From Obrimoposthia wandeli (Eukaryota): 64,000 bases of DNA. Position 1 is the first letter of the stretch, and each line of letters opens with the position of its first letter. The stretch covers positions 186,001-250,000 of the forward strand of contig CDROCS010000681.1 in assembly GCA_977020255.1 (NCBI GenBank), written 5' to 3'. Position numbers and translations under genes: made by a program. Below the pieces are notes generated by a model. That model was not told where the DNA came from. It saw nothing but the letters and a program-made list of their open reading frames with translations, and ran no database searches. Below are positions 13,701 to 64,000 of the stretch, in pieces.

Positions 13701-16700
13701 GTATATGTTTTTTTGTGAATCACTATTTATGTGTATTTTTTCTTCATTAACATATCTTCTTTCTGCATGATGTACTGGTACTGGTACTGAGTTTTTCTTC
13801 GTATTGTTTGAGACATGAGAACGGTTGTATTATCTTTTTAATGCATTAGCATATATATTCTGAACTTATGCAATCACGGTTCTATTTTTCTCAATTTTGC
13901 TATAAACCTTTACCAATGTCTCTATTTCTTCTTTTGGCATATGCAGTTTTAATAAAAACTGTTCATTCAGCTCATCTTTGCTAACGTTATTTTTCATCAT
14001 GGTTTCGACGAGTTTTCTAACTATAATACTGAACGCTGAGAAACGTTTGCCTGCTAATTGCTTCACCTTGCTTCAATATGGTCTGAAAAATATAAAGTAA
14101 TTTTTCATTACAATTAAAGCGTCAAAGATTATATGTAAAGAAGTAACATAACGAGAATAGGACATAAAATCAAATAACATAAATTCAAAGTTACCAACTT
14201 GAAGCACACATTTTATTCGTTCAACAGGAGCAACAATGACAGTAGAAAACAGTCCAGAAATCATTCCTGCTATGAAAACCTGCGATGTTCTAAGAAAACT
14301 GTTAAACTTACATAATACTCAAAATTTCTAACGTCAGAACCTGATTATCATTATTTATCTGCAACTTTCTGCCTATATTGTAACCGAAAAAGAAAGCAGC
14401 ATATATCGGTGTTGCTGCAAATAAAGGAGATGCCATTCCTTTGTAGAACCCATGCGTGCCTTCGCTTTTAAAAATTTTGAAAACACAATCCACGGTTCCT
14501 TTGTATGTAGCAATTTGACCAGGTTTAGGATTCTTCATTGTTTGTAAATGAACCTGTATAAATAGTATTTGGTAAATTGTGTACTATAACTACTTTGTAT
14601 CATTACTTATACAAGTTTGTTTACGTGTTGTAGCTACTTAGATGTGTAAATGTCTGGTTAAACTAAATGCATTTGAATTACAAGAAGCCATGATTATTCC
14701 TCATGGTTGATCATGAGCTCCAAATAAAAACGTAAATGAAAACAAAAATATACATGTTTTGTTCTTTTTACATTTTATTTTTATTAGAATATTACACAAC
14801 TTTCTATAAAATCTAATTATCTTAATCAACAATACCGGAATACATTATATTTAAATAAAACAGAAGACTGAGTTTCCAACGAGGTTTAGAGTCCACTAAA
14901 TTATTTAAAGTATTTTTTATGTTATTATATCTAGTTTATATTTTTAAGATGATGGTAGCTTATGATCATTTACAAGAACTCACTTTAGTAATCCTGACTA
15001 GATTTAACAAAAAATTTAAAATACAATGTTTTTTTAAATTAATCTCAAACAAATGTTTGAGATAAAGCTTGTATTTTTAAAAAACCTGATTTTTCCCGAA
15101 TTTACTCAACATTTTAAAATATTTTGTCAATGATGGTTCTTGTCAGGGGTAATAAAAGTTTTAGTGTAGCAACATACTAATCTACATTGTTTTAATGCTT
15201 TTATTAAATAATTGATAAATATTTGTTTCAATACAAACTTTAAGAGATTGTTTAAAGAAATAACTTCAGCATAAATATGTGATCATAAATATATTTTAAA
15301 ATAATTGTTATTTGATTGTAGCAACGTGTTAATTTGAGATATTTAGGTATAACTTTAGTCATTGGGAACGTATGCAACAAAGTTTCTATAAAAGAACAGT
15401 TTATACTCAGGCATACATGTTAATAAATCATGCATTCGTAATGTTTCTACCCATCCTTGTTTTATAGGCCATAAAGATGACCGGGATCGTTCTCATGGTG
15501 TGTGTGTTTGTACTCAAGCCCACCTAGGGCTACTCCGGATGATTGGTGCACCCAGAGACCAGTGGCAGAAACCCTGGAATCTCTTCAACTTCAAGGCTCT
15601 CAGAATATAATGATGTCATCAGAATTAATCTCGCTTTGAATTTCCATTTTTATGAATTAAAAGTAAAATTAGATTCTATTTGTAGTTTTCTTAAGCTAAT
15701 TAATTTATTAATTTGGTAAAAGACAATTCCTTTAATTTAATGAAATAATATTATAACCTAATTGATGTTCCTTAAGTAGTTAAAAATTTCTAAATTAAAT
15801 TACCAAAACAATCTATTTACAAAACAAGTTACTTATAAATCTAATAACAAGTAAATCTTTCAATATACATAATGTAAAGATCTTTATAAACATAAACAGT
15901 CATTATGTTTGTATGTATGTGTATATTAAACCAATTAAAGGTAATAATATTTTGATTATTTTAACCAATAAGAATGATCTAGTTGTAGTATATATACATA
16001 CTATGTTCTTTAGATTTCAAATGACTTCGTTACAAAAAATTTAAGAAACTAAAAAAGATTTTGGAGTACTTTGAGAAAATTTGGTTTGTTTTAACTTGCA
16101 GTATTAACAACCTAATCAAAATGAATATTGCCGATAGCAATATGAATAGTGCCACTGGCTCGTAAGTATATAATATTACTTTTTTTTAAATAATTTTAAA
16201 ACTAAATTGGATTATTGTACGTGAAAAAAAACAAGAAATCGTGATTATTTTATTAAAAGTATACTAAAAATACACTCTGTCACCAAAAATGTCATCTGTA
16301 TCCAAACATTTATGGAAAAATCGTGCCTTAGGTACATTTGAAACTGTTCAATTTCCCATTCAGGAAATTGGAGACCGTCATTGGTGTACAAATCACATTG
16401 TGAGATCAGAGAAATTGAGCTATATCTTTCAGTGTCGTGTACGGATTTTGATACAACTTCTCCAATAAAATTAATTCACCGACGTCTTCGAAAATTTTGC
16501 ATTTTGATACTTCTCTGGAGCCCCTGCTGATAATATTAGGTAGTTTATATCTCAAATGATTGCTTTGGCTGTGTACCCATTTATTTGTAGTTGTCGATAA
16601 AGAAGATTCGTGTCTTCTCCTCTTTCGTATGCTCAAGTCAAGGCATATTTGAGCTTAGAGGATATTCTAAATTATTTGTTAAAAGTTAGTAATCTGAAAA

Positions 16701-37420: not shown

Positions 37421-38831
37421 ATATATCTATATATTAATTCTCAATAATTTGAGTTTTAGATTTGTCGATTGACTTATATAATTCCCAACTTAAATATTAA
37501 CACATATTTAAATTTATTATACATTTATTGATAGATTTTTTTACTTTTCAAATATTAGTAAATCTAAAAGCCTCGTTGGAATTTTAGAAGAATTATATTT
37601 AAAAGTTTTTAGTTAACATATTTCTTCTAATCAATTTCAATTTAAAAGATGGACTTAGTCCAATCAAATTCAATGGTTTAGTTATATTAACGGATGAAAT
37701 TCATGTCTTTGTTACAAATTAGTATAAAAGAACGTGCAATTTGAGAACAAATCATTATAAATGCATTCATATCAAAGACAATTATCAGTGATGGAATATA
37801 GCCAACAGATATTAAGCGATGCTGAAGATTTAGAAATGTTTGAAGAATCGTATAAGGATATGTATGAAGAAGTGAAACCATATTTCAAATACAAAATCAG
37901 ATTCTTGAAGAAGCCTCAACTGATTGCTTTAGTAAATCCTGTGACAATTGAAATAAGAAAGTTTAGCTATTATCTATCAAATATTTAAAAACCTAATTTT
38001 CAATATCTTAAACAGGAAGTTGAAAAAGCAGTTCCAAGTTTTACATTCAATAAGAACGAATTTTATATCTGAGGAGCTAATTCAGTATTTTTAGATGAAT
38101 ATGTAAGATAAATAGATGTTGATGCGATTCCTATAAAGAAGCAATGAATTGTAACAATTTTTAAATTTTAACAACATCTGATATTGATCAATTGAAAAAT
38201 ATTTTGGGATTTTACATACCTGATTATGTATATGAAGGAAATTCTTTCCAGCTTCAAACTGATCCTAGTCTGACTTTTAGAGATGACCTAGGTTATTTGA
38301 TTGTTCCAAATTTAGATGAAGAACGATGAAATATTTCAATATGACTCTATGGATATTATCCTGATGCTAATGAAAAAAATAACATATTTGGACTTTGAGT
38401 GGAGCTAATATGGTGTTTTATATATATATATATTTTTAAATGAATTATTTTAAATAAATTTTACCTTATATTTTGTTTTTCTCCTATAAATTATATAAAT
38501 CTAACCTATATATTTTGTCCTTCTAACATACATGTAGTAATTTATTCATTTAAAATCTGTTATAAGATGTCCTTCTAACAGAAATGAAATAGTTGTCATA
38601 TATTCATATAAAATTATTATCTAAAATCTCGTTTACGATAAGTCGATGGGGTCAATATGGATTCCTGTGGTTTTCTTTTATCACTTTTGAGATTGGACGA
38701 AAAATTTAATTCCAAGTAACACACAAAACAATTGGTGAGATGGATTAGACAGGACAAACAGGCATAAATTTCCCTCCACACACATGCACTAAATTTTACT
38801 CCACATACATGCACGGTTTTAAAGGACAATG

Positions 38832-39600
38832 AGTAGGTAGATGTGTGACTTCTGGAACAAAGCCCCCCCCCTGAGGACAAGTCAAAAATCTAGGTCAAAT
38901 TTTTTGATGAGGACAAAAAATTTAGGTCAAATTTTGAAATTTCCGCGGAAAATTTGAAATATCGGTCAAATTTTTTGAAATTTGCGCGAAAATTTTTGAA
39001 ATTTGCGCGAAATTTTTTGAAAATGTTTAAAATTTCCATGAAATTTTATGAAAATTTTGAAATTTGCGCAAAATTTTTGAAATCAAATATTTTATGACAG
39101 ATGTAGGTCAAATTTCTCCCGAGTACACATGACTTTTTTATTTAAAGTCATGACCTCATAAGGTCAAGGGCATGTCCTCATGAGGTCATGGGAAAAATCT
39201 AGATCATGACCTCATAAGGTCAAGGGCATGTCCTCATGAGGTCAATGTCTAGGTCATGAGCTCATGTGCTCACCATGAGCCCAAAGTTATCATCAAGGTT
39301 ATGAGCTCATGTGCTCACCATAAGCCCAAAGTTATCATCAAGGTTATGAGCTCATGTGCTCACCATGAGCCCAAAGTTATCATCAAGGTTATGAGCTCAT
39401 GTGCTCACCATGAGCCCAAAGTTATCATCAAGGTTATGAGCTCATGTGCTCACCATGAGCCCAAAGTTATCATCAAGGTTATGAGCTCATGTGCTCACCA
39501 TGAGCCCAAGGTTATCATAAGCTTCATGCTCACTATGAGCTCATGTCATGAAAGACAGACATCTAAGCACATCATCATCTAAAAGGAATTATTATTAATC
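38832..39600 (+). mobile_element. Orphan Maverick/Polinton terminus, same orientation as and related to the one at 54353
   Basis: AGTAGGTAGATGTGTG... is 27/31 identical to 54353-54383; 39090-39132 is identical to 54632-54674 (43 bp); no core genes follow. Confidence 0.75.
39256..39545. repeat. 45-bp minisatellite, 6 copies plus a partial, each containing the palindrome ATGAGCTCAT
   Basis: Units at 39256, 39301, 39346, 39391, 39436 and 39481. Confidence 0.95.
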
Positions 39601-53992: not shown

Positions 53993-54420
53993 AAGCTGCA
54001 AGGTAACCCCTGTGATTCCTAGGGGATTGACCTAGACTTCGTGAAGCCAATACTCAGAAAAATGGTTAACTCTGAGCCGCCAATACAAGCAGTGTGGCGG
54101 CGCTCTGCTCAATGCCATCGGTAATGGATAGCCAAGGGTCGATGTGCGACGCCTGACAGAAGTTGTAGGGACTCGTTTGGGCGTGGTGCTGGAGGATGCA
54201 CGGTCTTCGAATTTGGTCGCAACTACCTGTCCGAACCTAACAAAATCTAATGAACATGTTAGACAGGTGAAAATTTGCGGTTTCTTACGACAGAGGATTC
54301 ATGTAATTCATTTCCAGCCTCACAAAAGCATAGCTCTGTTAATAGGTTCATGAGTAGGTGGATGTGTGTCTTTCGGAACAAAGACATTTTGACCCCCCAG
54401 GAGAAAAATTTTTATGAAGG

Positions 54421-54905
54421 TCAAAAATGTAGGTCAAAATTTTTTGAAATTTGCGCGAAAATTTCTGAAATATAGGTCAAATTTTTGAAATTTGCGCTAA
54501 ATTTTTTGAAAATTTTTGAAATTTGCGCGAAAATTTTTGAAATTTCCATGAAAATTTTGAAATTTGCGCGAAAAAATTGAAATATAGGTCAAAATTTTTG
54601 AAATTTGCGCGAAAAATTTTGAATTCAAATTTTTTATGACAGATGTAGGTCAAATTTCTCCCGAGTACACATGATTTTTATTTAAATTCATGAGGTCAAC
54701 TTAAGGTCACGGTGAGGACAAGATGTAGGTCAAGTCAACCATGTGTCTTTCGGAACAAAGACCATGAGTCATCGATGAGTCATCGATGAGTCATCGATGA
54801 GTCATCGAACAAAGACCATGAGTCATCGAACAAAGACCATGTGTCTTTCGGAACAAAGACCATGAGTCATCGATGAGTCATCGAACAAAGACCATGAGTC
54901 ACCCA
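54421..54905. promoter_or_regulatory. Subterminal motif arrays: TTTCGCGC x4 (minus), WAWNTAGGTCA x3, TGAGTCA x8
   Basis: GCGCGAAA at 54453, 54525, 54566, 54607. AAT.TAGGTCA at 54426, 54469, 54581. ATGAGTCA at 54764, 54775, 54786, 54797, 54818, 54862, 54873, 54894. Confidence 0.6.
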
Positions 54906-55128
54906 TGAGGACAACTTAAGGTCATGGTGAGGTCAAAGAGATTCTATTTTTAGTAACATACTTAAATTCTATTTTTAGTAACATACTTAAATTCTATCTA
55001 ACAAAGACAGTCACGCATCTATATTGCAAATACTTGCATCTTTATGTAATCAATAGTAACATTTATTCTTATACATGTATATATGTGTGAGTGTCTAACA
55101 AAGACACTGCATCTATATTGTAATGTAA

Positions 55129-55494
55129 TTACAAAGTTTTTGGTCGGTTTGCTAAAAAGTTTAGTTTTGGACCAAGATAAGCACTAGGATCCTTTTCAAA
55201 TGCTTTTGTAAGTTTATCTAATTTTACAAAAATATCAAGCATACCATCTCCTTTTTGTATACCATCTCCTTTTTGCACTTGTTTCTGATTTTGTATACCT
55301 CTCAAATAATCCACATTCTTTTTGTGCTTTATAGCTTTTTTATCAACTCCGCCAAACCATCTACCTAAAAGATTTGCTGCCATCATATGAATACCCAAAC
55401 CTTCCATGATTTTCTTTTTACTCATAGTCTTTTTACTCATAGTCTTTTTAACCCTAGTCTTTAATGATTTAGTAGGTTTTTTAGTCATTTTCAT
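55129..55494 (-). CDS. Small lysine-rich element protein (possible core/DNA-binding protein), about 121 aa
   Basis: Likely start MKMTKKPTKSLK at 55494; basic N-terminus; MEGLG and QKGDG x2 motifs. Confidence 0.6.
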   Translation of the reverse strand: MKMTKKPTKSLKTRVKKTMSKKTMSKKKIMEGLGIHMMAANLLGRWFGGVDKKAIKHKKNVDYLRGIQNQKQVQKGDGIQKGDGMLDIFVKLDKLTKAFEKDPSAYLGPKLNFLANRPKTL

Positions 55495-55579
55495 AATAAA
55501 TATTAAAGTATCACTATTGTTTATAATATAATAATAAATAATATATATAAAATAATACAAATAAAGACACAAAAATTTA

Positions 55580-55969
55580 TTAGTCAACTCTAACAGCATC
55601 AATTAGTTTCCATATCGGAGTTTCCAATCCACTGGGCCCGATCTTGCATCCTTGAATTCTGATTGAGATAATCCATTCTAGCTTAGGAGGAGGTGCTTCG
55701 TATATTGTTCCATTCTCATGCTTGAAAGTGGCAGTTGATCCTTTGATTACGAATTTGTTTTCCTGAAGTGCATAGTTGATTCCGAATTGAGTCAAGAGAA
55801 TATTGATTCTCTCTTTATCCACAGAAGTCAAATTTGATATTTCAAAATCAAATTTAAGCGGCTCGATGTTGATAGGAAAAATAAAATTATAGTTATGAGC
55901 TTTCTTCAAAAAGTGCATCTCATATCCAAAATATGTATGCATAGGTTGATATAGCTTTTCGAAATTCAT
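55580..55969 (-). CDS. Hypothetical 129-aa element protein, possibly an OB-fold/SSB-like protein
   Basis: Clean ATG ORF; the beta-rich C-terminus WIISIRIQGCKI..PIWKLIDAV only loosely resembles viral SSBs. Confidence 0.5.
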   Translation of the reverse strand: MNFEKLYQPMHTYFGYEMHFLKKAHNYNFIFPINIEPLKFDFEISNLTSVDKERINILLTQFGINYALQENKFVIKGSTATFKHENGTIYEAPPPKLEWIISIRIQGCKIGPSGLETPIWKLIDAVRVD

Positions 55970-56060
55970 ATTGACAATTATAAATTGAAATATTCAATTG
56001 TTTATCCTCTAAAGCTCGATTCTAATTGGTCGATTAGTCTCAATTGCTTAACATTCTTGT

Positions 56061-56267
56061 TTATCGTCTAGTATTAGTCATATCCTTAAAGGGCTCACGT
56101 TCTTCGGTTACGCGCGTAGGACTTGTTATTGTTTGACTTGATGGATTAATATTTTCTCTCTGATTATTTCTATTATAATTCATATTAGAATATAAATTAC
56201 TACTGGAACCTATGTATGTACTAGCTCTACTTTCATTATTTTGATTATTTTGATTATCCATTATCAA
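56061..56267 (-). CDS. Small N/Q/S-rich ORF divergent from the IAP
   Basis: ATG ORF beginning 107 bp from the IAP start, sharing the intergenic repeat module. Confidence 0.35.
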   Translation of the reverse strand: MIMDNQNNQNNESRASTYIGSSSNLYSNMNYNRNNQRENINPSSQTITSPTRVTEEREPFKDMTNTRR

Positions 56268-56286
56268 AATATTGTTTATACTAAGA

Positions 56287-56328
56287 CAAATAGTTGCAAA
56301 TAGTTGTAATGTGGTCTAAAAATAGATT
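56287..56328 (+). promoter_or_regulatory. 42-bp module, identical copy at 58010-58051
   Basis: CAAATAGTTGCAAATAGTTGTAATGTGGTCTAAAAATAGATT, followed by TATATAAG (56338) or TTATAAA (58061). Confidence 0.7.
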
Positions 56329-56373
56329 TTCACTTACTATATAAGCTAGACAATTTCATCATTCAATTTTGTT

Positions 56374-57370
56374 ATGACTACTAAATTTATTGCACATTAT
56401 GTTTCAGAAAACGGAGAACTCACCATTAGACGACGGCGTTTTGATAATATTTCAAGAATAAATGAAAATATGATATATGAAGAAAGAAGATTAGAATCGT
56501 TACAAGCAAAGTTTACTGGTTTAGCCCATAAGAAAGCTTTAGCAAAAGCAGGATTTTACAAGCACGATGGTTCGAAAGATAATGTAAAGTGTATTTACTG
56601 TCAGGGAGGAATATCAGGATGGGAGTACTATCTGAAACCAATGAAGCAACATCAGCTATTTTTCCCAAGATGCCCGTTTGTTTTGAAAATGAATGTTTCA
56701 AACGTACCAATAATTGATTCCAGCACCACCCAAATTGATTTTGATACAACTCCAATGGATAAAGTAGTTATTGTGCGCAATAATTATTCTAATGATATTG
56801 AAATACCTACATTATCGATTTTCGATCATGTATATATTTGGAATGATTCTTATCGATGTTGTTTCTGTCGGCCAGCAGTACCCCGACTTGACCTTATTGA
56901 TACTATGCCTGATCTTTCATACTCGAGATTGTAAAGCATCTAGTATGGGAATCAAGAACGGATGTATTGTTGAATATCATATTAGTAATGATGAAATTGA
57001 TGCCCAGATGGAAACTCGTCAAATAGTTTTGCTGAAACGTGATTACAGCCATGATAGAATCAAAGCTGTTTTAGTTAATAGGTTTAAAACATTCGGTAAT
57101 AAATATGATTCTATATATGAGTTTATAACGGATTTAAGGTCTTTAGAAATAAAATCTGAACCAAAACATCGGATAAATTATCTCGAGTACCTCTTACCAA
57201 ATCCCGAATGTGTTGTTTGCATGAGTGATGCGATTTCCGTGGCATTTTTACCATGCGGTCACTTAAACACGTGTATTAAATGTTCAGATCGTTTTATTAC
57301 ATGTCCATATTGCAAGACAATTATCATTAGACGAGTAAGAAATATTAGATTTCATAGCATAGGCAATTAA
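56374..57370 (+). CDS. iap: Inhibitor of apoptosis (BIR, degenerate second BIR-like segment, RING); one frameshift near 56860-56925
   Basis: BIR: ERRLES..LAKAGFY..DNVKCIYC..GW..KQH..FPRCPFV. RING: CVVCMSDAISVAFLPCGHLNTCIKCSDRFITCPYC. Confidence 0.9.
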
Positions 57371-57433
57371 GCAAATCTAAAAATATATGTTCAAATTGTA
57401 TAAATAGAAGAAATCAGTTTATAATAATCAGAA

Positions 57434-57970
57434 ATGCTACTTCATAATATCAAATTAGTGAATATTAATTACAAGGGAATGGTTGTAAGTAACATTCAAC
57501 ACTTACCATTTCGGACTTCGAAGCCTCATCAGTATCGACTCAAGTGTGAAGGTTACACTATTATCATTTTCAAATCTGGTAATTTATATTTACATTTATA
57601 TATAATTCTAATTTAGGTACATGCAGAATAATGGGTTGCAAAACAGTGCTGGATGAAAGCAGTCTTCCTTTTGATATAAAAATCGAAAGAATCCAATCAA
57701 TCAGTCTCAGCAGCAATCTAGAAACATCGATAAACCTAAACAAGATGAGCAAGAGTATGGGATCAGAAGCTGTTTACGAGCCAGAAATCTTCCCGGGACT
57801 TCGATACGTCAAATACAATCCCCTATGCGTGAACATTTTTTGCTAGCGGGAAGATTATGATACTCGGTGTTAAATCTTTAAACTATGAGTATCTGATTGA
57901 ATGTATTTTGTTTAATATAGATCTTCACACTTGTGTTATTTATTTCCTAAACCAAATAGTTTTAAAATAG
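57434..57970 (+). CDS. TATA-binding-protein-like protein: exons 57434-57578 and 57617-57970, 38-nt intron, one extra T at 57836-57841; about 165 aa
   Basis: Splicing gives IIIFKSGTCRIMGCK (repeat 1). YEPEIFPGLRY..VNIFASGKIMILGVK is repeat 2 (TBP consensus YEPELFPGLIY..LIF.SGK.V.TGAK). Confidence 0.8.
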
Positions 57971-58549
57971 ATTTCTCTTAGAGACAAAGACATCACATGT
58001 CATTACTTGCAAATAGTTGCAAATAGTTGTAATGTGGTCTAAAAATAGATTGTTCATGGGTTATAAACAATATTTGATTTGCTTTTTATCATAAAATGGA
58101 TGAAATTATTCAATGTACAGAGATTGAGGATACATTATAAGAACTTGCTTCAGTTATTCTCATTGCTTTAATTAAGAAAAATAATCCTAAATAATAATTA
58201 TATGTAGTTTATTTAACTCTCTTAGTTACGTCATCAACTACATTTACATGAGATGTTAAATACAATGGAAAGGTTGAATAATACTCCAATCAAATCATAT
58301 GATGAAACTGATGCTCCAATGAAATCAAACCTTGTTTAATATATAAGACTAAATTGACTCGGAATTGATAAAATGGAGAAAATCGATTCAGCACCAGAAG
58401 CAACATCATCATCAGTAACATCATCACCACCAGCAACAACAACAACAGTTATAAGAAGAGAGAAGAAACTATTGATGAAGTGACGATAGAAGAAGAAATT
58501 ATTATAGATCAATTATTGAAGATAAGAGACGGATAGATTTTTAAATGCT

Positions 58550-58984
58550 TTGGCTTTTATGGAACCCATAATAGCTCATGCTTCGAGTATGGAAATGAAC
58601 CACATGACCCATCTTTTTGATAGTTTGTTTAGTGCTAGATTTACTCAACTTAATGTAGAAAAGTTAAACAAAACCGCGATGAGTGAGATTTTAGTAAATC
58701 AATTATATATTGGTAATTATAGAGATGGGTTTGATGAAACTAATCTTTTGAATTCCAATTTCACTCATGTAATCAATACATCTATACTGGATAAAATATC
58801 TTATAAGAAATTAAAATATACTTCTGTCTTTGTAAACTCAAAATTAGGAGAAACAATAATGAAGTATTATAAACAGACATTTTTTATAGCAATAATTTTA
58901 TTTGATATTGTTTATGCTTTAACCAAAGCAGACAGAGTTGTCCACATGACTGTGTTAAAACATTTTGATAATGTTTCTTACTAA
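58550..58984 (+). pseudogene. N-terminal half of a dual-specificity-phosphatase-like protein; no HCxxGxxR motif
   Basis: MSEILVNQLYIGNYRDGFDETNLLNSNFTHVIN matches the DUSP/VH1 N-terminal pattern; the 3' part overlaps the protease end on the opposite strand. Confidence 0.6.
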
Positions 58985-59318: not shown

Positions 59319-60549
59319 TTATACTAGTACTGTTCCTCCCTTGGTAATTTGAACCTCAGAATCGAATACTCCATAGATTATAATATTAGTAGGATGTTCA
59401 AGTGCTTTTGAAAACTTGATTTCTACTTTCAAATTTCCCTGTTTAGGTATTTGAGCTTGATTAATATCGAAATCAGGAGAGAGAACAAATGTGAACAGTG
59501 TATACTTGTCCTTGAAATCAGTCATTGAAATTCCAATATTAGCATCCTTATCCAAATGACCAAGATTTCTAATTAAAGATTGCACATAAGAAAACACATA
59601 ATCATCGTTTTCAAAAGTCTTTCGTATAAGATTTTTTATAACCAATTTTTGGGGAAATTTAAATTAAACTCACATTCATGTGTCCAAATTGAGAAACCTC
59701 ATTTTTAGACTCACCTCCATAGGTAGAAGTGTTTTGGAAAGCAATTAAAACAAAGTTTGGAAGTTGCATATCACCAAAAATCTGATCCTTGTAATAAGAT
59801 AGTGCTCCTGTAGGGATAGCGTGAGAAACAAGATTAGTTTTTCTAATAGGATAACATGCATTTTGCTTCTCCAACCCCATTCGATGTGCAACAAGTACAG
59901 ATGGTTCCACCTTTACTCTTCGAACCAGCAGTTTTGCTTCCGTAATCTCAATTGCGGTTTTAATAGTATCAGCGCAAACAACACTAAAACCTACTGGATT
60001 TCTCTTCATCCGAATATGTGCACTTACACCGGGTAAAAGATACTTTGGTTGCTTAAAGAAATCCAAATGGAGACTCCCACAAAGTGACAATACTTTAGAC
60101 TTTGCAATCGAAGCAATTCTTCTTTTTTCATCATTGTCAAACCCAATTGCATCAAGATTAATCAATTTCGTATCATTACCGTAATTCAACAATGTTTCAA
60201 TCATTGCTTTATGAGTGTAGCTAGTATTATTTCCCTCAACTTTCACATTATTGAGACTGAGAATCACATCCTTGAAAAGAGTATGCAACATGTAATTAGC
60301 TGATTTGATATCCATACCATCATCCAAATCACCTCCACCTTCCTTTGTAACTTTCAATTTAACGAGAAATAAACTATCATTCAAATCAAGATATTGAGTA
60401 TTGGATCCATTAATATTGAATTCTAAATCCGGAGAAGATGTCCCGTTAACCGTATTTGTCGGAAATATTTCTTCAAAACTAGCACTATCAACCACAACCT
60501 GAGGTATAGGTTTATCGAATATACACAATTCAGTTTTAGCACAACTCAT
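59319..60549 (-). CDS. Major capsid protein (double jelly roll), interrupted by TAA at 59659-59661 and a +1 shift at 59613-59616
   Basis: CAKTELCIFDKPIPQVVV, LEFNINGS..YLDLNDS, LHLDFFKQPKYLLPGV, FTFVLSPD..GNLKVEIKFSKAL..IIIYGVFD: Polinton MCP patterns. Confidence 0.9.
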
Positions 60550-60913
60550 TACTTAAAAATTGTTCCACCTAGTTTCAAACGTTTGTTTATACCCGATACT
60601 TTAGATGTTTTCTTACGTTTATAACCACTTCCCTTTTTGAGTTTTCTTTTTTCAAAAATTCAGCTAGACTTGGTGAAATTTCATTCACCTGATCCAAGGC
60701 TGCTTCCTTTAGTGTGGGAAGAAATTTCTCATCACTTGACAAGTATTTTGATCCAACATTAGCAATAAATTTCCCGAGTCGCTTGAGTAGTGGGAAAGCA
60801 AAGCGACCAAAAACCTTCATCCATCCTGATCCATACTGTTTTCCGGCAAAATAAGGCAAATCACCTCCTTGCATCGGTTTACTATATGCATCGATTATAC
60901 TTGAATCAATCAT
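60549..60913 (-). CDS. Conserved small Polinton protein with an amphipathic helix and basic tail (frameshift near 60634-60652)
   Basis: MQGGDLPYFAGKQYGSGWMKVFGRFAFPLLKRLGK. The shifted frame ends KKGSGYKRKK..GGTIFK* with TAA overlapping the MCP ATG. Confidence 0.75.
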
Positions 60914-61925
60914 AATTTACGAAAATGAACCGTTAAACTTGTTTTAGCTGTAAGCAAATGTAATTAATCTTCCAGAATCATTACGTATATTAACTTCAAT
61001 ATTGTTTATAGAAGAACTCACGGGAATATACATTGGATTTTCAATTGGAATATGTATAACATCACCATACTTGTGCTTTTCCTGTTGAACCCAAATTGCT
61101 TTAATTAGGGAAGTTTCCTTCCTCCTACGAATATTGGTTCGGTAATACTCGTGTAGATATAAATCTGATTATATGCATTAGTCATTTTAGGAATAATCTT
61201 TGCTTTGAAAACCTCATTTTTATTTTCAAATTCATTTTCATCAAAACCGATAATTGAGGCTAATGATTTATCCATGATGATTTTATCAATATTGGATTTC
61301 AATTTGAAATGAATCAATTTATTAACTAGTTTAAAGTTTTCAAATACATTTGGTAACACTGTTTTAAAATGTTTACACATACTTTTGCTATCGGCAAAAA
61401 GAAAATCATTGGGAACTGAATATATTTTCCTCTCGCGTTTAACGAATCTATTTTTATCTTGAATGTAATTATCGGATACTTGACATGATTATCCATAATT
61501 TTTGAAACTGCATGCTTACCTTTTTCAACGTTAGGCGGAAATCCATATTGTTCTGCAACAATTTCATCATTAAAAACTATTTCAAAATTATCCCCTTTTC
61601 CCATAATTTGAATTCGATTCTCTTTATTTAAAAAGATTGTGAAATCATCGCCCGCCTTAATACGAGCCAAATCCATTTGACCCTTATCAAATAGTAAAGT
61701 CACATCAGTTACTTTATCAACTTCACGTTGGGTAATATATTCAATCTCAGTTTCACTTTGAATAGATAGAGGAGAGTAATTGAAAGAAAATTCCGTAAGA
61801 GCAGCTTCCCAACCACCAGGTAAATTGATTGAGCTTTGATAATCAATACTAAAACTATTAGCAGTATTATTCGGTTGAGTTAATGGCGAACCATTACTTG
61901 GTAATACAACATACATTGAGTTCAT
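60910..61925 (-). CDS. Minor capsid (penton) protein, two frameshifts (near 61411-61413 and 61114-61122)
   Basis: MYVVLPSNGS..PNNTANSF..INLPGGWEAALTEFSF; IYIYTSITEP; NPMYIPVSSSINNIEVNIRNDSGRLITF..LTVHFRK*. ATGA overlaps with both neighbours. Confidence 0.85.
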
Positions 61926-62950
61926 TCTATTTGAGAAGCTAATATCCAACTAGGTTCAGTATATCCATGCCACTTAACATGATATTGTTTATGCTTTCCT
62001 CTACCTTTTGTCTCTAAAATTTCTTGGATTCTATATACATTCGGTTTCTCAGGCAAGACTTGTAATTCCTCATGATAAAATTTACCCGTGATTACCTTAT
62101 TGGTTTCATCCTCAATGAAATACATTACCGGCATACGTTTATTATCAATTTTAGTTATACGAAATACTTCATCACTCCAATTCTCTTTGAAATTCTTTAT
62201 AAAAGGAGTAGTACTAATTTGAGAAATACGTACATAATCACCAACTTTATACTTGGGTTTCCGCGCAACTTGACTTTGGTTACGGCGTTGCCAAATTGCC
62301 ATAGCATTCTCATCTGTAACATCAACGGGTCTCTTTCGGTCTAATGATGAGTGTTCACTATGATTGTATGCATGTATTATTTGAGGTAAAACAGTAACCC
62401 AGGACTTATTTCCCTGCTTTGTGAAATACTTTTTCAAACGATCTCTCAATGTTCGATTAAAACGTTCAACTAAAGCGGCTTTATATTGGGAAAATACTGA
62501 GTAATGATTAATATTATGTTTTTTCAATAGTGTTTCAACATGTTTATTATAAAACTCCTTTCCACTATCCGTTTGGAAATTTCTTGGTTTTATTTCTTTA
62601 ATCAAAAGCTTCATTGCGGTTAAAACATCGGTACCAGACTTAGACTTTAATGGAATAGCTCGCGCGAATCTGCTAAAGACATCAACACAAGTTAAAATAT
62701 ATCGATATCCGTTGTTAATACTCGCATACGGAATCATTTCCATCAAATCTGCTTGCCATAAATCATTCGGGCCGCTCGTTTTGTATGATCTCGTTGGGAA
62801 CCGACGTCTCATTGGTTTGTTTAAGCTGTAAGCTAATTGATTTCTCAACCACGCCTGAGTTTCCTGCTTTGTCTTCTTTGTCTCTTTTGCTAATTTTGAA
62901 ACCCCTGTGTAACCAACGGGATGACTTGGATCGAACCATATTTTCTCCAT
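61922..62950 (-). CDS. int: Retroviral-type DDE integrase with a C-terminal chromodomain-like segment, intact, 342 aa
   Basis: WQADL (D), FQTDSGKEF (D), ALVERFNRTL (E); C-terminal YRIQEIL..YHVKWHGY..SWI. Confidence 0.95.
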   Translation of the reverse strand: MEKIWFDPSHPVGYTGVSKLAKETKKTKQETQAWLRNQLAYSLNKPMRRRFPTRSYKTSGPNDLWQADLMEMIPYASINNGYRYILTCVDVFSRFARAIPLKSKSGTDVLTAMKLLIKEIKPRNFQTDSGKEFYNKHVETLLKKHNINHYSVFSQYKAALVERFNRTLRDRLKKYFTKQGNKSWVTVLPQIIHAYNHSEHSSLDRKRPVDVTDENAMAIWQRRNQSQVARKPKYKVGDYVRISQISTTPFIKNFKENWSDEVFRITKIDNKRMPVMYFIEDETNKVITGKFYHEELQVLPEKPNVYRIQEILETKGRGKHKQYHVKWHGYTEPSWILASQIE

Positions 62951-63420: not shown

Positions 63421-64000
63421 TTAATCAATTTTTAACTTCGGGTTTAACAGTTTCCTTTTAAAATTCATCTTCTCAAAACTGGTTTCTTTTGTTTGTTTAT
63501 AGATGGTTATTCCCGATGGATTGAATACATCAGTTCTAACTCTAAAGTCATCGGGACAATCTTGAGTAAAATCAATAAAAATGTATCCATGAGGAATAGT
63601 AGTTGCATCTTGAAATGAATCAATTAAAAACTTTCTATTATTCGGGTAAGCTTGTCTTGAAACAAAATCAACAACCGTCTGATCACGTGGATTCTTGAAG
63701 AGAACAAGGTAATGTACATTTAAATTACGAGTTCTATGGTTCCCTCCTTGATGAAATAGATTTTGTGTGATGAAAATAACAGTTACTTCCCGATGTCGTG
63801 CTATTTTAGTGAATAAATTATTGAAATCACTCTCTTTATTTGCTTCTTGATATAAATCATCAATAACAATAACATCATGTCGTTGTAATCGCTCAGACCA
63901 ATTATCATCGAATCCATTAATGACTTTTATATTTTTTGATTTTCTTAAACTCTTTACTGGTTAAACCAGCTTCTCCATCTCCTCCCTGATGCCAGTATAT
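63421..64000 (-). CDS. A32/FtsK-like genome-packaging ATPase, C-terminal part (partial; +1 shift at 63932-63937)
   Basis: Hand translation, absent from the ORF track: VIVIDDLY (Walker B), KIARHR, IFITQNLF, LFKNPRD, HGYIFID, FRVRT; stop at 63423-63421. Confidence 0.92.

Follow-up and report, generated by a model that had tools for sequence, protein, structure and literature searches.

Several described systems come close to the gene analysed here. Beta- and gammaherpesviruses encode a protein with a TBP fold, vTBP (KSHV ORF24, EBV BcRF1 and HCMV UL87), which is associated with a TATT late promoter (PMC12529657). TBP-like proteins are also found in large dsDNA viruses, and loss of the lobe-1 signature in viral TBPs has been read as an escape from Mot1/BTAF1. 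According to the same source, a patch on lobe-1 helix H2 binds TFIIA, TAF1, Mot1 and Brf1/2, and two Glu residues bind TFIIB (PMC7221094, relevant passages). A 'TBP' gene label has been given for MELD viruses and adintoviruses, so that a gene of this kind has been named in a polinton-type genome before (PMC8502044, legend of Figure 5; bioRxiv 10.1101/697771). Introns are known in accessory cargo genes of nematode Mavericks (10.1101/2022.07.12.499685, in part), and introners have been described in dinoflagellate elements (PMC11957031, in part).

Here, we describe a TBP-like gene in a Maverick element. The explanation that best covers all observations, and to which we give somewhat better than even chances, is that this accessory gene is spliced and encodes a miniature TBP (mini-TBP) that acts as a late-gene promoter factor.

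The element and its inverted repeats

The window, by which we mean the whole stretch of 64,000 nucleotides that was analysed, belongs to contig C681; the assembly is eukaryotic, AT-rich and 1.35 Gb in size. An earlier reading of the sequence alone (the sequence-only reading) had called the TBP-like gene element-encoded, and rightly so: it sits in the inverted repeat of a Maverick of 15,795 bp, which starts at 54353 with AGTAGG and ends past the window, at contig position 256147. The genes of the inverted repeat are mirrored past the window's end. The window contains the following parts of the element:

54353..58878 (+): left terminal inverted repeat, about 4.5 kb, with AGTAGG end and 6-bp target duplication; carries the IAP, TBP-like, phosphatase-like and p129 genes
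55580..55969 (-): p129, an unnamed conserved gene that often adjoins the TBP-like gene
56374..57370 (+): IAP gene (BIR and RING), in two frames in the window copy, 333 aa in others
58373..58984, approximate (+): dual-specificity-phosphatase-like gene, broken in the window copy; PF00782 matched on another copy
59319..60549 (-): putative major capsid protein gene, in two frames in the window copy, 409 aa in others
61922..62950 (-): rve integrase with chromo-like C-terminus (PF00665, E 3.3e-14)

The core of the element consists of genes for the rve integrase, an A32-like ATPase, the putative capsid, core proteins and a protease. The gene at 59319..60549 has no Pfam match, and we take it to be the capsid gene from gene order and a general likeness. 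Throughout the family of this element (family A), the capsid and protease names are likewise our assumption, drawn from the order of the genes, such likeness and a weak match to PF00770 in a relative.

Seven family-A elements were compared. A 6-bp target duplication was seen in six of them (flanks read by eye), so that the family still integrated as a unit. Their inverted repeats measure 3.8–5.0 kb and are 96–99.8% identical, and the IAP, TBP-like, phosphatase-like and p129 genes were found in both halves of all seven. Because of their place in the repeats, four to five accessory genes come in two copies per element. None of the seven carries a protein-primed PolB, the sole matches lying beyond the element ends, while PolB is present in families B, C, D and E. 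Judged by its sequence, family A is a non-autonomous Maverick/Polinton derivative.

The TBP-like gene is highly amplified in this genome. A first look returned 2,561 candidates for the gene's DNA and 19,768 for the TBP profile, figures that are not copy numbers; 40 and 150 of these, respectively, were scored. TFIIB shows no such amplification in the genome, with 29 candidates (12 matches) as compared to those for TBP. The overall load of Mavericks appears unusually heavy: at least five families are present, and a first look returned about 24,000 candidates for protein-primed PolB.

Some further observations concern the architecture of these elements. A family-B copy on contig C625 shows an inverted duplication of 5.9 kb (98.6% identity), suggesting that long inverted arms may arise repeatedly. 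Elsewhere in the window, tandem repeats like those of the element's end (38900–39600) and a family-B gene fragment (37761–37988) mark a second, decayed Maverick end. The p129 proteins form a family of 110–130 aa with the motif IQG(Y/F)K..TPIW, whose genes adjoin the TBP-like gene in many elements; a search for a Pfam family or a solved relative of p129 found neither. A 45-nt motif, consisting of CAAATAGTTG twice and then TAATGTGGTCTAAAAATAGATT, is duplicated at 56287–56345 and 58008–58052. It precedes the IAP gene and follows the TBP-like gene and is possibly an enhancer; loose read ends suggest that, in other subfamilies, it immediately precedes the TBP-like gene.

The probable intron of the TBP-like gene

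The TBP-like gene of the window copy is organized as follows, with a candidate host intron added for size comparison:

57434..57578 (+): exon 1, 48 codons plus 1 base, whose product is homologous to the N-terminal region of relatives without the intron
57579..57616 (+): GT..AG intron of 38 nt (phase 1) that splits the Gly codon following IIIFKS
57617..57970 (+): exon 2, covering the last part of lobe 1 and all of lobe 2 (PF00352, E 4.9e-7)
57836..57841 (+): homopolymer run where the frame of the window copy is broken; open in most copies
14290..14332 (-): host intron candidate, 43 nt (GTTAGA..TTAG), in a mitochondrial-carrier-like gene

The 38-nt insert reads GTAATT..TTCTAATTTAG. Exon 1 ends in ...IIIFKS, the split codon encodes Gly, and exon 2, which matches solved TBPs in addition to the Pfam TBP family, picks up the protein with TCRIMGCK in a different frame. 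Retention of the intron in the window copy gives a product of 60 aa that stops at the intron's own TAG. When the window copy is read past the homopolymer run with an X, the frame ends at 57970 and comprises 48+1+116 = 165 codons. The sequence-only reading had arrived at the same 165 aa by a homopolymer correction. This length holds for the window copy, but 26 of the 30 closest copies have an exon 2 with 120 open codons, resulting in a protein of 169 aa. The right-hand copy of the gene in the same element shares this intron, and its exon 2 is open. The break at 57836–57841 may be an assembly error or a sign of decay, and several further genes of this element are also split over two frames.

Pairs of GT and TTTAG at a distance of 36–40 nt occur 63 times on the two strands of the AT-rich window. 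The look of the insert alone is thus not evidence for an intron, but the comparative data are. If the insert were private to the window copy, other copies should lack the 38 nt; they keep it. It is present in all of the 30 closest copies (chosen for likeness), and among 30 further copies with an identical exon 1, 25 have a GT..AG insert of 38 nt, one each has 37 and 32 nt, one has lost the GT, and two are unreadable. Five family-A copies were picked for long frames, and no processed, insert-less copy was found among them: three carry a stop-free read-through insert of 39 nt (156–185 aa), and two do not read through. The read-through inserts look like later mutations, since one of them has lost its GT.

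The same position is used in other families. Family B (seven readable loci out of eight) and family D (one locus) have GT..AG inserts of 39–40 nt and 39 nt, respectively, in the same Gly codon. Both families bear a polymerase, and their proteins are about 50% identical to that of family A. Thus, the intron position is constant in families A, B and D while the sequence of the intron diverges. In family C, all nine loci are contiguous at this site and read IFKTGKCRIMG without a gap, as are all six loci of family E. The metagenomic homologues comprise 34 loci, 33 of them in the TBP-like family; all 30 with a readable start, and one partial locus in addition, are contiguous, and two stop short of the site. 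The search patterns were taken from lobe 2, and hence the metagenomic search did not select against introns. Because these intronless homologues read the two frames contiguously, the junction is fixed.

Sequence variation points in the same direction. Of the 40 best-supported variants in four read sets from one sample, 37 are exonic; on the spliced frame, 27 are synonymous and 10 non-synonymous (expected share 0.32, p 3.7e-7), although they are not independent events. The ratio is 10:2 in exon 1 and 17:8 in exon 2, and this synonymous excess in each indicates that both exons are under selection, despite their different frames. Taken together, the same-codon inserts in three diverged families and the contiguous intronless homologues make it very likely that the 38-nt insert, which had been proposed to be a spliceosomal intron, is indeed one, of the U2 type. 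It is very likely spliced constitutively, as far as can be judged from these comparisons. The four read sets themselves behave as genomic DNA between 57380 and 58000: intron depth is about equal to exon depth, and no read joins 57578 to 57617.

Two details of the sequence-only reading need to be revised. It had argued that splicing is required since 38 is not a multiple of 3. This is true of the window copy but not general, for the 39-nt introns in families B and D hold in-frame stops instead. It had also pointed out CTAAT as a branch-like site. This word ends 4 nt before the intron end, but it is not conserved: the C is replaced by A at about 95% of the read depth and in 15 of 64 assembled copies (a set in which the window's subfamily is over-represented), and the word is missing from family B. 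Across the families, no conserved internal motif beyond AT richness was found in the intron.

These observations bear on two other explanations of the insert. According to one, already raised by the sequence-only reading, the intron is a regulated switch, in which retention holds the factor off in latency and splicing turns it on. The premature stop caused by retention in all three intron families, the position kept in them and the weak, AT-rich intron with no conserved branch word would all fit this idea. However, under pressure from nonsense-mediated decay, any small intron should come to carry such a stop; unproductive retention is ordinary for small introns and therefore no sign of a switch. 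A conserved motif beyond AT richness or an alternative splice site was not seen in the intron, and families C and E, which have long open polymerase frames, manage without it, as do all readable metagenomic homologues. We thus consider a switch improbable. Even less credible is that the gene was inactivated by the insertion of these 38 nt in a non-autonomous family, which went on to spread with it as a passenger. Family A does lack a polymerase in all seven elements, many copies are broken, and no spliced contig is present in the four DNA-like read sets. Nevertheless, purifying selection acts on both exons in their different frames, and GT..AG inserts occupy the same site in two polymerase-bearing families, which makes such a history very hard to sustain. 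Constitutive splicing of a working gene remains the preferred reading.

The intron is lineage-restricted and host-sized. The sequence-only reading had compared it to the host's 43-nt intron, and this comparison stands: the candidate at 14332–14290 exists, although two 34-nt alternatives keep its frame too, and the host TBP gene has an intron of 47 nt (counted by eye). Inheritance from host TBP was considered and rejected. The host introns lie elsewhere, before YEPELF and after VLTG, and the suggested comparison with host TBP-family genes revealed no shared position. Since none of the host TBP-family genes examined uses this position, the intron is not a left-over of recent capture. In two trees, the branching of families A, B and D was compatible with a single intron gain as well as with several.

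With the frame split by the intron, ORF-based annotation misses the gene in some families. Five database proteins (P0005, P0045, P0050, P0051 and P0058) and about nine more begin at a Met right after the intron site. They resemble gene calls on intron-bearing copies and may be such, but a nearer start or a frameshift fits equally well. The intron alone is a modest point, given that introns in Maverick cargo genes are already known.

The protein and the promoters

The structure prediction that had been suggested as a check gave a TBP fold for homologues of the gene. The models are of two natural homologues rather than of the window's spliced product. The first, the naturally intronless family-C protein of 144 aa (31 sequences), was modelled with a pLDDT of 93.1 and a pTM of 0.83. 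It superimposes on yeast TBP with a Z score of 13.5 and an rmsd of 2.5 over 144 residues, the next unrelated fold having a Z score of 6.5. Lobe 1 of this model has strands but no helix (none before residue 82). The second, a read-through copy of family A, has the same core, with the retained insert as a loop (pLDDT about 56). Feature clustering also groups the protein with TBP, but recognition was below threshold, so that this is weak evidence.

In terms of its sequence, the protein matches the PF00352 profile and forms a two-lobed beta-saddle in the models, but it departs from canonical TBP in lobe 1. The spacer between G125 and Q158, corresponding to the helix H2 stretch, is 17–26 residues long versus 32 in host TBP. 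We compared the residues in the list of yeast TBP DNA contacts (Table 1 of PMC12529657), mapped by sequence alignment, in 31 rows. N69, F116, F190 and F207 are kept. V71N, F99P, V122R, T124M, I194R and L205N are invariant in every covering row (30–31 rows), and A101Q and N159S occur in 28 and 30 rows, respectively. The position of F99 is Pro in 30/30 rows, although it maps to a gappy part of the alignment. Both TFIIB-binding Glu residues of the YEPE stirrup are invariant (31/31 rows). Thus, the two-repeat TBP core of the sequence-only reading was correct as to the fold, but the first repeat lacks both helices (H1 and H2) as well as the first of four DNA-contacting Phe residues; the other three, which were to be checked, are there. 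Because the fold is kept while the lobe-1 helices and F99 are missing, the protein is a member of the TBP fold but not a canonical TBP. Intact copies very probably encode a functional TBP-fold protein. The invariant polar changes on its predicted DNA face argue for a changed specificity; alternatively, the loss of the Phe could mean weaker DNA binding.

A profile search for the family yielded 46 clusters at E 1e-30 or better (50%-identity representatives) and many more members below. Of the 33 metagenomic loci, 11 have a Maverick hallmark gene, nine more have p129 and 13, mostly short ones, have neither. Five TBP relatives were found in viral contigs, none of which belongs to the Maverick mini-TBP family. 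Among distant homologues, P0081, P0089, P0093, P0096, P0118, P0128 and P0141 have lobe-1 stretches of helix length, yet show the Pro/Gln and RxMG changes; in sequence, the distant homologues form gradual steps between a full TBP and the mini-TBP. The host genome itself contains several TBP paralogues, namely a head-to-head pair on C238 and three divergent genes, of which the one on C968 bears an intron and the two on C60 and C1092 do not.

Upstream of the genes in the window's element, we noticed two types of promoter motif:

57399..57406 (+): canonical TATA box TATAAATA, 35 nt before the TBP-like ATG
60585..60591 (-): TATAAAC, candidate late promoter, 42 nt before the capsid-gene ATG
63495..63501 (-): TATAAAC, candidate late promoter, before a 140-aa basic core-protein-like gene

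With the TATA box at 57399, the splice sites and the host-sized intron, nuclear expression by Pol II, as the sequence-only reading had it, is the natural reading. ATAAAC was found upstream of all 15 non-redundant starts of capsid (5), ATPase (7) and core (3) genes. In 14 cases it reads TATAAAC, and the distance to the ATG is 32–53 nt, 14 of the 15 lying at 32–42 nt. Within 15–60 nt of these starts, there was no such site on the other strand, and shuffling gave a mean of 0.86 and a maximum of 4 (500 shuffles). At 24 non-redundant TBP-like starts, by comparison, ATAAAC was found once and TATAWAWR 11 times. The starts share ancestry, and the comparison set is without TBP-less Mavericks; the p of 6e-10 is inflated since the gene groups were chosen after the motif was first seen. 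In the same interval, ATAAAC precedes none of three minor capsid starts, one of six integrase, one of five p120, four of nine p129 and one of two IAP starts, and not the single polymerase start. The motif of capsid and core genes lies inside the last codons of an open upstream gene in seven of eight cases and could be constrained by that protein; in six of seven cases, the ATPase motif lies outside any open frame. TATAAAC has a density of 1.2 per kb in the element versus 0.5 per kb in the host portion of the window. When viral contigs were scanned three times for ATPase and capsid genes, no TBP-less Mavericks were found, and the three ATPase and six polymerase neighbourhoods inspected in the genome itself were of family E with a TBP-like gene, or fragments. 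TATAAAC may hence be a general Maverick motif that is read by host factors.

Other features of these upstream and downstream regions deserve mention. At ten loci (L128, L130, L131, L135, L140, L149, L151–L153 and L155), the TBP-like gene is preceded by a second promoter type, with TGTTTTA, then an AT-rich non-canonical box and, close to the ATG, the initiator-like word TCA(T/C). In the window, small basic and Asn/Gln-rich ORFs at 55129–55491 (-) and 56061–56261 (-), each with TATAAAC before it, possibly encode further late core proteins. No AATAAA or ATTAAA is present within 400 nt below the TBP-like stop.

From these observations, the following course of events can be proposed. Host TBP and Pol II would transcribe the TBP-like gene early, from its canonical TATA box, and the host spliceosome would take out the 38-nt intron. 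The mini-TBP would then bind TATAAAC via its rebuilt DNA face and recruit host TFIIB, and with it Pol II, through the kept YEPE stirrup. Without the lobe-1 helix surface, it would be neither held nor evicted by TFIIA, TAF1, Mot1/BTAF1 and Brf1/2. The outcome would be that late expression of the element's virion genes (capsid, packaging) is favoured. In TBP, the 3' half of the TATA box is contacted by lobe 1; if this applies here, the most rebuilt lobe would face the differing base. For the late-factor role as such, we see about equal chances either way. That a broad group of Mavericks/Polintons runs an early-to-late programme through the smallest TBP yet, reading TATAAAC and plugged into host TFIIB and Pol II, is a more tentative proposal still, which may well turn out to be wrong.

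It is also conceivable, if less likely, that the protein is a general TATA booster or competitor, which supplements or displaces host TBP and titrates TFIIB, and that TATAAAC is read by the host or is a weak poly(A) signal. The host reader would then be TBP itself or a forkhead protein. The forkhead consensus RYAAAYA fits ATAAACA, to which the motif extends in 14 of the 15 cases. The kept TFIIB-binding Glu and three Phe residues would fit such a booster, and its neighbours, the IAP and phosphatase genes, are host-manipulation genes. Host-type TBP can use such a site to some degree: in plant protoplasts, TATAAACG retains 27% of the activity of TATAAATA with the plant's own TBP (PMC10005294, that experiment), so that it is a weak but usable site for an ordinary TBP. 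However, the invariant polar substitutions on the DNA face imply a changed specificity, as in KSHV ORF24 (PMC12529657, Table 1), and the motif is fixed in strand and distance like a TATA box. The poly(A) version is also at odds with motifs before p129 genes that are oriented away from the adjacent gene, since no transcript ends upstream of these.

Comparison with known systems

In its domain set, the element resembles other Mavericks/Polintons, with which it shares the integrase, ATPase and capsid genes, the AG.. ends and the 6-bp target duplication. It differs from vertebrate Mavericks, which have intronless core genes, repeats of 46–1,447 bp and a polymerase, whereas family A has gene-bearing repeats of 3.8–5.0 kb and no polymerase (PMC8097293, as far as its relevant sections go). 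The comparison with the 'TBP' of MELD viruses and adintoviruses is by label only, as the legend entry gives no structure, family range, intron or promoter (PMC8502044). A term look-up in the accessible text of PMC11161782, PMC10748475, PMC11131425, PMC8097293 and 10.64898/2026.10.13.758929 found no mention of TBP or TATA. In the literature covered, with most subscription journals, Repbase and supplements outside its scope, we found no helix-less Maverick TBP family and no TATAAAC promoter.

Like cellular TBP and TRF2/TBPL1, the mini-TBP has the saddle fold, F116, F190 and F207 and the YEPE(L/I)F stirrup. Unlike cellular TBP, to which it is about 25% identical, it is without the lobe-1 helices and F99. 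TRF2 keeps the full TBP fold. It has likewise lost an intercalating Phe (PMC10005294, in passing). The TBP-like proteins of large dsDNA viruses share the fold with the mini-TBP and, likewise, have not kept the lobe-1 regulatory signature; the helices are deleted in the mini-TBP but substituted in the viral proteins. Moreover, the TFIIB signature of these viruses has diverged and many encode their own TFIIB, whereas the mini-TBP keeps both Glu residues (PMC7221094, relevant passages). No element-encoded TFIIB was seen, and identity to viral matches in BFVD is at most 22%.

The closest working analogue is the herpesvirus vTBP. In both cases, the DNA face of a TBP fold encoded by a virus or virus-like element carries polar changes, structural genes are preceded by a variant TATA box (15/15 here, in a comparison without TBP-less Mavericks), and host Pol II is used, for the mini-TBP in our model. 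The pair N425/N427 of KSHV ORF24 recalls the NIN motif of the mini-TBP family. However, the mini-TBP is a stand-alone protein of 144–169 aa, while the herpesvirus vTBP is a multidomain protein of 750 aa in a six-protein complex; the TFIIB Glu is kept in the mini-TBP and missing in ORF24, and the reverse is true for F99 (PMC12529657, including its Table 1). A Pol II-binding N-terminal domain, ORF34-type partners and loss of the TFIIB Glu, which mark a herpesvirus-type vTBP, were all not found. The mini-TBP is therefore an analogue of the herpesvirus vTBP and not a member of its family, any kinship being visible at the level of the fold.

These comparisons bear on how Mavericks/Polintons time their capsid genes and on whether virions are made. 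With a candidate factor and a candidate promoter, the question becomes testable on a single small protein and a 7-base motif. The mini-TBP can be regarded as a natural deletion experiment, in which the saddle and the TFIIB stirrup were kept and the surface for TFIIA, TAF1, Mot1 and Brf1/2 was dropped, and it could serve as an orthogonal transcription tool. If the proposed role is true, Mavericks would possess a dedicated late factor that is convergent with the herpesvirus vTBP, and this would be evidence that they pass through a regulated phase of virion production inside the host nucleus.
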